A stretch of DNA of 64,000 nt, taken from positions 110,586,397 through 110,650,396 of the forward strand of contig CM097887.1 in assembly GCA_044892525.1 (NCBI GenBank), in the 5' to 3' direction. This DNA is from Schmidtea polychroa (Eukaryota). The notes under the pieces are model-generated. The model worked only from the letters and a program-made list of their open reading frames with translations, was not told the DNA's origin and did no database searches. Positions 25,536 through 26,020 of the stretch are shown here, one piece after another. Position numbers and translations under genes: made by a program. The first letter of the stretch is position 1; every line of letters begins with the position of its first letter.

Positions 25536-26020
25536 TTACAGAGTTGGTTTATTCAGGAGGGTCGCATTCTCGAACGTCTTTTGGGAACGTGGATTGGCCC
25601 CAGCCTCTTTCAACTTCTCCTGCTCGGCCAGCCAGGCCCTTTTCAATTTGTCGCGGGTATTCCGCCCGAGCCGTTTACGTTTCGGCTTGCCTGTCGGGGC
25701 TGGTGGGTATATTCTGGCTAGCTCCACCTGGAGAGGGCGGATCTGCTCTTGGAGGGCGTCTTGTATGAGTTTTTCATTCAATTTGCTTTCGAGAGAGCGT
25801 ACTTGTAGTTTCAACGCCCGAATCTCGAGTTGGTCTTGCTCTGCCTGGGTCTGGAGTTGCGAGATGTGGGTCTTCTGTTTTTTCATCTCGGCTGGGCTGA
25901 ACCAGGTACCTTGGAGTTCTCGATACTTCAGCTTGAGTTTTTCGACCCGACCTCGGAGACCCTCGGATTGTTGCTGGGCCTGTTCGCGGTCCTTTCGTAG
26001 GTTTTCCAATAACTGGTACA
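25536..26020 (-). CDS. ORF-B: coiled-coil/basic protein, probably a spliced exon
   Basis: LRKDREQAQQQ, EIRALKLQ, IRP and KRKRLGR are shared with 11236-11717. Preceded by an acceptor ttttcttcag|TGTAC. Confidence 0.72.

Follow-up and report, generated by a model that had tools for sequence, protein, structure and literature searches.

Introduction

HIV (nef), MMTV (sag) and foamy virus (bel) have small, spliced accessory ORFs located within a long terminal repeat (LTR) or extending into it; these ORFs occupy U3, and the 3' LTR drives their expression. Rev/Rex/Rem/Rec-type regulators are small, spliced, helical proteins with a basic patch, from elements that must retain an intron in their genomic RNA. 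To our knowledge, an LTR with a promoter, an intron of 3-4 kb and two alternatively spliced genes under selection is unusual for LTR retrotransposons.

A start codon assembled by splicing has been described for the env mRNA of Drosophila gypsy, where the codon is split AT|G, the gag region supplies the donor and the reading frame is an internal one, according to the passages of PMC2585583 on this mRNA. The giant Burro/GYPSM1 elements of planarians are longer than 30 kb, have LTRs of about 5 kb and encode, besides a CCHC gag and a protease with a fusion-glycoprotein env lying between the two, internal domains for MATH/TRAF, RT, RNase H, integrase, ankyrin, BIR and RING, as given in the passages of PMC6431247 on these elements. 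The same passages cover the internal ORFs and name no LTR genes, intron or splice-made start codon (PMC6431247). In a literature search that left aside Grohme et al. (2018) with its supplement, and figures, neither LTR genes nor an LTR intron turned up for Burro; the LTR ORFs of Burro may already be shown in that original Burro paper.

Here we analysed a window of 64,000 nucleotides from Schmidtea polychroa (contig CM097887.1, positions 110,586,397 to 110,650,396), which contains an LTR of a Burro-type element with two ORFs, ORF-A and ORF-B. The element family is known, and the LTR gene layout is the unusual part. As in gypsy env, within the account given in PMC2585583, donor and acceptor bases together build the start codon. 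In contrast to gypsy env, the codon is split A|TG here, and the donor, the intron, two acceptors and both ORFs all lie within the LTR. Unlike nef, sag and bel, the ORFs are placed downstream of the putative transcription start, so that a solo LTR would hold the whole two-gene unit; no sequence similarity between ORF-B and nef, sag or bel was found. We consider it very probable that ORF-B is an accessory gene present in both LTRs, that an A-ending leader is spliced over an intron of 3-4 kb and thereby makes the ATG, and that the product, a helical basic protein, likely acts in the nucleus on expression of the element itself.

The window repeat is a solo LTR of a Burro-type element

The preliminary description of this window, made from its letters, missed that the repeat carrying ORF-B is an LTR of a Burro-type giant retrotransposon. 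The LTR sequences of the window and the relic near them were as follows.

25201..30753, minus strand: solo LTR of 5553 bp with TG...CA ends, from a Burro-type giant Ty3/gypsy element, with a sharp end at 25201
25201..25445, minus strand: strongly folding, conserved 3' end of the LTR (75-90% identity across subfamilies; folding z -3.2)
10937..15884, minus strand: solo LTR of a second subfamily (copy 2), target duplication ATAG, donor at 15187|15186
12374 onwards, minus strand: ORF-A of copy 2, its frame broken after 67 aa
11717-11236, minus strand: ORF-B of copy 2
10561-10908, plus strand: relic ORF-B of a third subfamily, with three in-frame stops and its acceptor region lost

The sequence at 25201-30753 was identified as a solo LTR because it has TG...CA ends, is bounded by a 4-bp target duplication (CAAC, at 25197-25200 and 30754-30757) and splits an ordinary gypsy pol at its insertion site. 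The shared repeat stopped sharply at 25201 in 29 of the 30 loci displayed, and six of these ran on into a common flank, a primer site that is the complement of the 3' end of a genomic tRNA-Pro(TGG). Exact junctions between LTR end and primer site numbered 362 in the genome. Helitron, DIRS and Penelope readings were dropped given the target duplication, the primer site and the paired LTRs. When the 781-Mb genome was searched with ORF-B, the best 150 of 6477 candidates were scored as matches, far above chance, and many of these 150 stood in same-strand pairs about 30.5 kb apart.

A 36.6-kb element (G000:C1:20626355-20662910) had two 5.6-kb LTRs, both 98% identical to the window LTR. Pfam searches of its 14 internal ORFs gave matches for 10, with gag, CCHC, MATH/TRAF and fusion glycoprotein (env-like) domains before protease, RT, RNase H, integrase, ankyrin, BIR and RING; no BCL2 or dUTPase domain was matched in the 14 ORFs at E 0.01. 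Its size, LTR length and internal domain set are like those given for Burro/GYPSM1 in the corresponding passages of PMC6431247. With a length above 30 kb, two long LTRs, this domain set, TG...CA ends, a target duplication and a tRNA primer site, the element of the window repeat matches the planarian Burro elements by published description, not by sequence comparison.

More fragments of the same LTR family lay in the window at 34089-34789 and about 35927 (plus strand, two 5' blocks) and at 15980-16130 (plus strand, one 3' end). Elsewhere in the genome, a tandem array of tRNA-Pro(TGG) with a 475-bp period began at G000:C1 130901000 (L149), and the tRNA-Pro(TGG) pattern had 2269 genome-wide matches, primer sites counted in.

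Open frames of the two copies and the relic

The two open frames reported for ORF-B were found on the minus strand at 25536-26045 (copy 1) and 11236-11757 (copy 2). Both start at TTCAG|TGTAC, with the AG ending at 26021 and 11718, and both contain the motifs that had been named for them. The earlier estimate of about 40-45% identity held for the whole length (44-45%), with a local value of 50% over 146 aligned aa. The claim that neither frame has an ATG was correct for the N-terminus and wrong internally, where copy 1 has Met46 and copy 2 has Met37. The relic showed STWFSPTEM, PKRKCLG and the three in-frame stops reported for it, at 10672 (TAA), 10678 (TAG) and 10714 (TGA); stop-free relatives of this relic exist (loci L066, L067, L074 and L075).

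A leader exon, one donor and two acceptors lie within the LTR

The gene structure of the window LTR, read on the minus strand, comprised the following parts.

30084..30106, minus strand: TATA-like motif (30106-30099) and initiator-like TCAGT (30088-30084), at the end of a shared conserved 5' block
30019..30086, minus strand: leader exon 1, about 68 nt, last base A, without ATG in the window copy; 3' end placed from intron-less copies, 5' end putative
26021..30018, minus strand: intron GTAAGT...CAG of 3998 nt between exon 1 and ORF-B, enclosing ORF-A; donor at 30019|30018
26312..26674, minus strand: ORF-A, 120 aa, with the AT-hook-like end RKRGRPRK and its own acceptor TAG at 26676, one base before the ATG
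26184..26189, minus strand: AATAAA between ORF-A and ORF-B, 168 nt before the ORF-B acceptor
25536..26020, minus strand: ORF-B coding exon, TG followed by 160 codons and a stop, 161 aa with the junction Met

Both ORFs are in sense orientation in the 3' third of the LTR. Rather than being part of ORF-A, the upstream exon of ORF-B is a separate short leader, located in the same LTR at a distance of about 4 kb. Against Pfam AT_hook, ORF-A reached an E of 0.17 at best, and the AATAAA that follows it is likely the poly(A) signal of a putative ORF-A mRNA. Judged from its motifs, the TATA/TCAGT site is a candidate promoter and transcription start. Transcription would begin there, near LTR position 670, which would place ORF-A and ORF-B within the transcribed R/U5 leader; R/U5 would then be close to 5 kb, and this gene layout would explain part of why Burro-type LTRs are so long.

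A canonical donor was located 58-74 nt after the TATA-like and TCAGT motifs that close the conserved LTR 5' block. Among 43 matches to the 5' block, which like the other donor and LTR counts represent related lineages and not independent draws, 36 had the donor and 35 of the 36 read A|GT(A/G)(A/G)G; the other seven comprised two cut by locus ends, one spurious match, three with a decayed donor and one spliced copy. Counted by distinct exon ends, the base before the donor was A in 21 of 22; positions -2 and -3 varied, and A made up 33% of the exon. Alternative donor candidates were rejected as not conserved, whether they lay within ORF-A, in the 3' block of the LTR or beyond the primer site.

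Sequence conservation at ORF-B began at the YAG of its acceptor. With the offset fixed, 101 of 121 records read YAG|TG at this site, and the exceptions were mostly frameshifted or decayed; a later, motif-anchored count gave YAG|TG in 60 of 68 distinct contexts, in which the eight exceptions were three with another base after the T, four with the AG lost and one spliced copy. In the proposed mechanism, the A-ending leader exon would be spliced over the 3-4 kb intron to the YAG|TG acceptor; since A precedes the donor and TG follows the acceptor, the join gives an A|TG start codon in frame with ORF-B. The G is fixed at a third codon position even though synonymous sites are saturated, which points to Met.

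Translation of ORF-B from unspliced RNA at the genomic GTG, with the intron-less copies described below reflecting occasional and irrelevant splicing, would account for a GTG that is near-invariant at this site, and one contig, from a run of uncertain type, ran unspliced from ORF-A to the acceptor and across it. However, this reading leaves the invariant YAG, the A at a donor 4 kb away and the G found in the ORF-less family (see below) unexplained, and the GTG has a poor context (pyrimidine at -3) behind many upstream ATGs, that of ORF-A among them. We therefore regard it as highly improbable and retain the spliced A|TG start.

Among 30 distinct exon-1 variants, an ATG within the exon was followed by a stop in the exon in 14, was open in frame with ORF-B in 13, was open out of frame in one and was absent in two, the latter being the window subfamily. 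In the 13 variants, translation could truly begin at the in-frame ATG 11-14 codons upstream, which would add 11-14 unconserved residues, and some subfamilies may have a longer form of ORF-B. No start other than the junction ATG is common to all 30 variants.

Natural intron-less copies record both splices

A full-length element with the target duplication GTCA (G000:C1:78918511-78953687) had LTRs that were both 1561 bp long and identical at 1560 of 1561 positions. Compared with an unspliced relative, bases 1-738 of these LTRs matched as far as the GT of the relative, and the match resumed at its acceptor with bases 739-1561, at 98%. The junction is A|TG, in frame with ORF-B, which has one stop there. 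A gapped genome-wide pattern for the join of exon 1 to ORF-B found both 1561-bp LTRs and nothing else; a looser pattern gave a third match (L192) that was not matched by the stricter one.

The second kind of intron-less copy was a solo LTR of 2242 bp with the duplication AGTC (G000:C1:74857131-74859372), in which exon 1 is joined to the ORF-A acceptor and which recurs with the same flanks on contig C611. The last G of the intron is absent from it, as predicted for splicing and not for a microhomology deletion at the shared TATA. Copies of both kinds thus indicate that each splice was used at least once, on RNA that was reverse-transcribed; each represents one independent retro-copied event, and both came from a subfamily about 80% protein-identical to the window copy.

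The conserved donor and the genomic copy with the junction support the spliced transcript with an upstream exon that had been proposed for ORF-B. Taken with both acceptors, the donor and the intron-less copies identify the LTR as a two-gene, alternatively spliced unit. Nearly all LTR copies retain the intron, and the RNA that normally transposes would retain it as well. Three family-specific patterns for copies without the acceptor G gave 2, 0 and 0 matches, the two being point variants and not spliced copies. No joint at either acceptor was seen in contigs from five runs, of uncertain type, that were compared on two references. At L105:6972 (run X6), about 340 nt beyond the 5' LTR, two contigs ended in an A-run, which may represent a poly(A) site ahead of the RING ORF or else internal priming.

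ORF-B and ORF-A are constrained between subfamilies

Selection was assessed on 21 natural open ORF-B copies, with 42 pairs compared across subfamilies. dN/dS was 0.02-0.18 in the 16 of 42 pairs for which dS could be computed, and the remaining 26 were saturated at synonymous sites (pS 0.74-0.97, pN 0.15-0.41). Over 110 columns, invariant positions numbered 26 at first, 45 at second and 1 at third codon positions. ORF-B is under purifying selection between subfamilies. The selection in master elements that had been suggested earlier is supported by this codon-level constraint, and the neutral substitution pattern that would speak against it was not seen between subfamilies. Codons 2-37, ahead of any in-frame ATG, were equally constrained, and the ATG-less N-terminus of ORF-B is therefore coding.

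In the young window subfamily, the ratio for private changes was 0.81, close to neutral (15 changes, 4 synonymous and 11 other); in the copy-2 group, changes found in one copy each had a ratio of 0.37, which is not neutral. ORF-A was likewise constrained, and across subfamilies the two ORFs formed islands of similarity amid unalignable sequence. At L020, L025, L087, L088 and L097, ORF-A was a mosaic with the N-terminal half of one subfamily and the C-terminal half of another, which suggests recombination between subfamilies.

These results bear on the view that ORF-B is a captured host gene fragment, open by chance. Conservation of the protein under synonymous saturation speaks against it, the dN/dS values already largely refute it, and protein searches gave no named homologue. 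The best genomic matches were in LTR context; with the top 150 candidates per query scored, a distant host gene is possible. Chance openness of a host fragment appears extremely improbable.

Accessory ORFs share an acceptor-like AG before the ATG

Seven of eight accessory ORFs had a YAG 0-3 nt before the ATG and the eighth had AAG; for one ORF, the ATG common to both subfamilies was chosen. The background rate of YAG near ATG was about 10% of window ATGs (211/2185). Gaps between accessory ORFs were mostly 80-170 nt, most with AATAAA. Six internal 3' accessory ORFs were packed with short AT-rich gaps, most with TGTA/AATAAA, and with AG adjoining the ATG (L107:4915-8455, L108:1-1060, L033, L034). 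By analogy, the layout of the internal accessory ORFs may be called operon-like or adenovirus-late-like. The LTR donor would also serve the AG-preceded internal ORFs, so that one leader exon would be common to all accessory ORFs.

Flatworms have both trans-splicing of a spliced leader (SL) and operons, according to the passages of PMC12582326 and PMC8629364 on these subjects, and ORF-B might be opened by SL trans-splicing of an operon-like precursor, not by a cis leader exon. The spacing of about 80-170 nt, the AATAAA in most gaps and the AG 0-3 nt before the ATG of accessory ORFs would suit such a precursor. However, flatworm SLs end in ATG, as stated in the relevant part of PMC12582326, and joined to TG this would be out of frame with ORF-B; in addition, a conserved cis donor is present and its products were found in the genome. 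For ORF-B, trans-splicing is very unlikely, and cis-splicing of the LTR leader is preferred; trans-splicing may use the same acceptors for other ORFs.

ORF-B is predicted to be helical and basic

The predicted ORF-B model showed helices at 2-38, 42-103 and 119-141 (mean pLDDT 82, pTM 0.35), with the basic stretch preceding the last helix. ORF-B has 34 Lys+Arg and 20 Asp+Glu, and the basic motif residues K113, R114 and R122 were conserved in at least 90% of sequences. The NLS and coiled-coil labels given earlier fit the sequence and this predicted model. For ORF-A, three helices were predicted (pTM 0.31). In bZIP proteins, a basic region with an invariant Asn lies N-terminal to the leucine zipper. 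A bZIP assignment for ORF-B was rejected: its basic stretch follows the long helices towards the C-terminus, several subfamilies have Asp or another residue in place of the Asn, and no Pfam bZIP match was obtained in 24 members.

ORF-A and ORF-B represent two small protein families without named relatives. Pfam gave sub-threshold coiled-coil families at most for ORF-B, PDB sequences a best E of 0.16, viral structures a best E of 1.6 and the Atlas no usable match. Protein word searches, which covered near lengths, gave nothing for ORF-B or ORF-A, and profiles of both found no paralogue among the internal ORFs. A profile search of 1.84 billion proteins with ORF-B gave three matches. One was a 157-aa family member, and the other two (P0002, P0003) were unnamed longer proteins with an ORF-B-like C-terminus and unrelated N-termini. 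The C-terminal part of one long protein had at most 38% identity in this genome, and that protein is therefore likely from another species. Its N-terminal part, which we take to be parvin-like, suggests a gene model that used the ORF-B acceptor; P0002 and P0003 are likely gene models running into an LTR acceptor in another species.

Two readings of ORF-B function share this gene structure. Tentatively, and with somewhat less than even confidence, we propose from the model that ORF-B would self-associate via its long helices, enter the nucleus by its KRKR-type patch, bind nucleic acid or chromatin and act as a regulator alongside the AT-hook-like ORF-A. The nuclear role is favoured because of the basic patch, the AT-hook-like neighbour and the need of the element to keep its intron. 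Alternatively, ORF-B may be a structural or cytoplasmic accessory protein, such as a particle component or an adaptor for TRAF, BIR and RING proteins, which we consider a serious possibility, if a minority one. Long helices and a basic patch would equally suit RNA packaging or scaffolding, and the element has other coiled-coil and apoptosis/ubiquitin-type ORFs. However, the basic motif is at least 90% conserved, ORF-B travels with the AT-hook-like ORF, and a sister family with intact LTR ends and primer site (PBS) has neither ORF in its LTR.

This sister family was seen among 40 primer-site-anchored loci, taken from the first 100 listed on one contig: ORF-B was present close to the LTR end in 18, and the other 22 gave no ORF-A or ORF-B match. 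In 18 of these 22, a single lineage, the stretch included the promoter block and the same donor, preceded by G in 15 and by A in 3. The sister family is abundant and shares LTR ends, primer site, promoter block and donor (G000:C1; L153, L156, L158, L164, L173, L180, L186, L189 and others). Viewed from the LTR alone, its intact ends and primer site with no LTR ORF-A or ORF-B fit a dispensable or trans-supplied factor.

With the nuclear regulator as the preferred reading, ORF-B resembles the Rev/Rex/Rem/Rec type by analogy, being small, spliced, predicted helical and basic in a patch, with the intron kept in genomic RNA; no similarity to these proteins was found and no conserved export signal was seen in ORF-B. 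Speculatively, and with appreciable doubt, one promoter and an A-ending mini-exon might choose between an AT-hook-like and a coiled-coil/basic protein and feed about seven internal genes. The pair might then form a regulatory system, so far undescribed, of an element resembling complex retroviruses, and the many solo LTRs whose frames are open might be dispersed protein-coding genes, able to affect the chromatin or RNA of the host during lapses of piRNA silencing. BURRO transcripts increase in differentiated tissue on SMEDWI-2 loss, according to the passage of PMC8532177 on these transcripts. Production of LTR-encoded protein in SMEDWI-2-depleted differentiated tissue is directly testable, and the exact junction coordinates can be used for reading element activity in RNA data.

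Other features of the window

The window also contained an intact-looking histone H4 frame at 17776-18084 (minus strand), with a partial copy at 8369-8485, and a hAT-like transposase in two frames (Pfam DUF4371) at 20206-22562 (minus strand). The sequence at 44311-45403 (plus strand) is presumably a Tc1-like transposase relic. An inverted pair at 55148-56004 and 63142-64000 was 99% identical, and we take its members to be pogo-like fragments.
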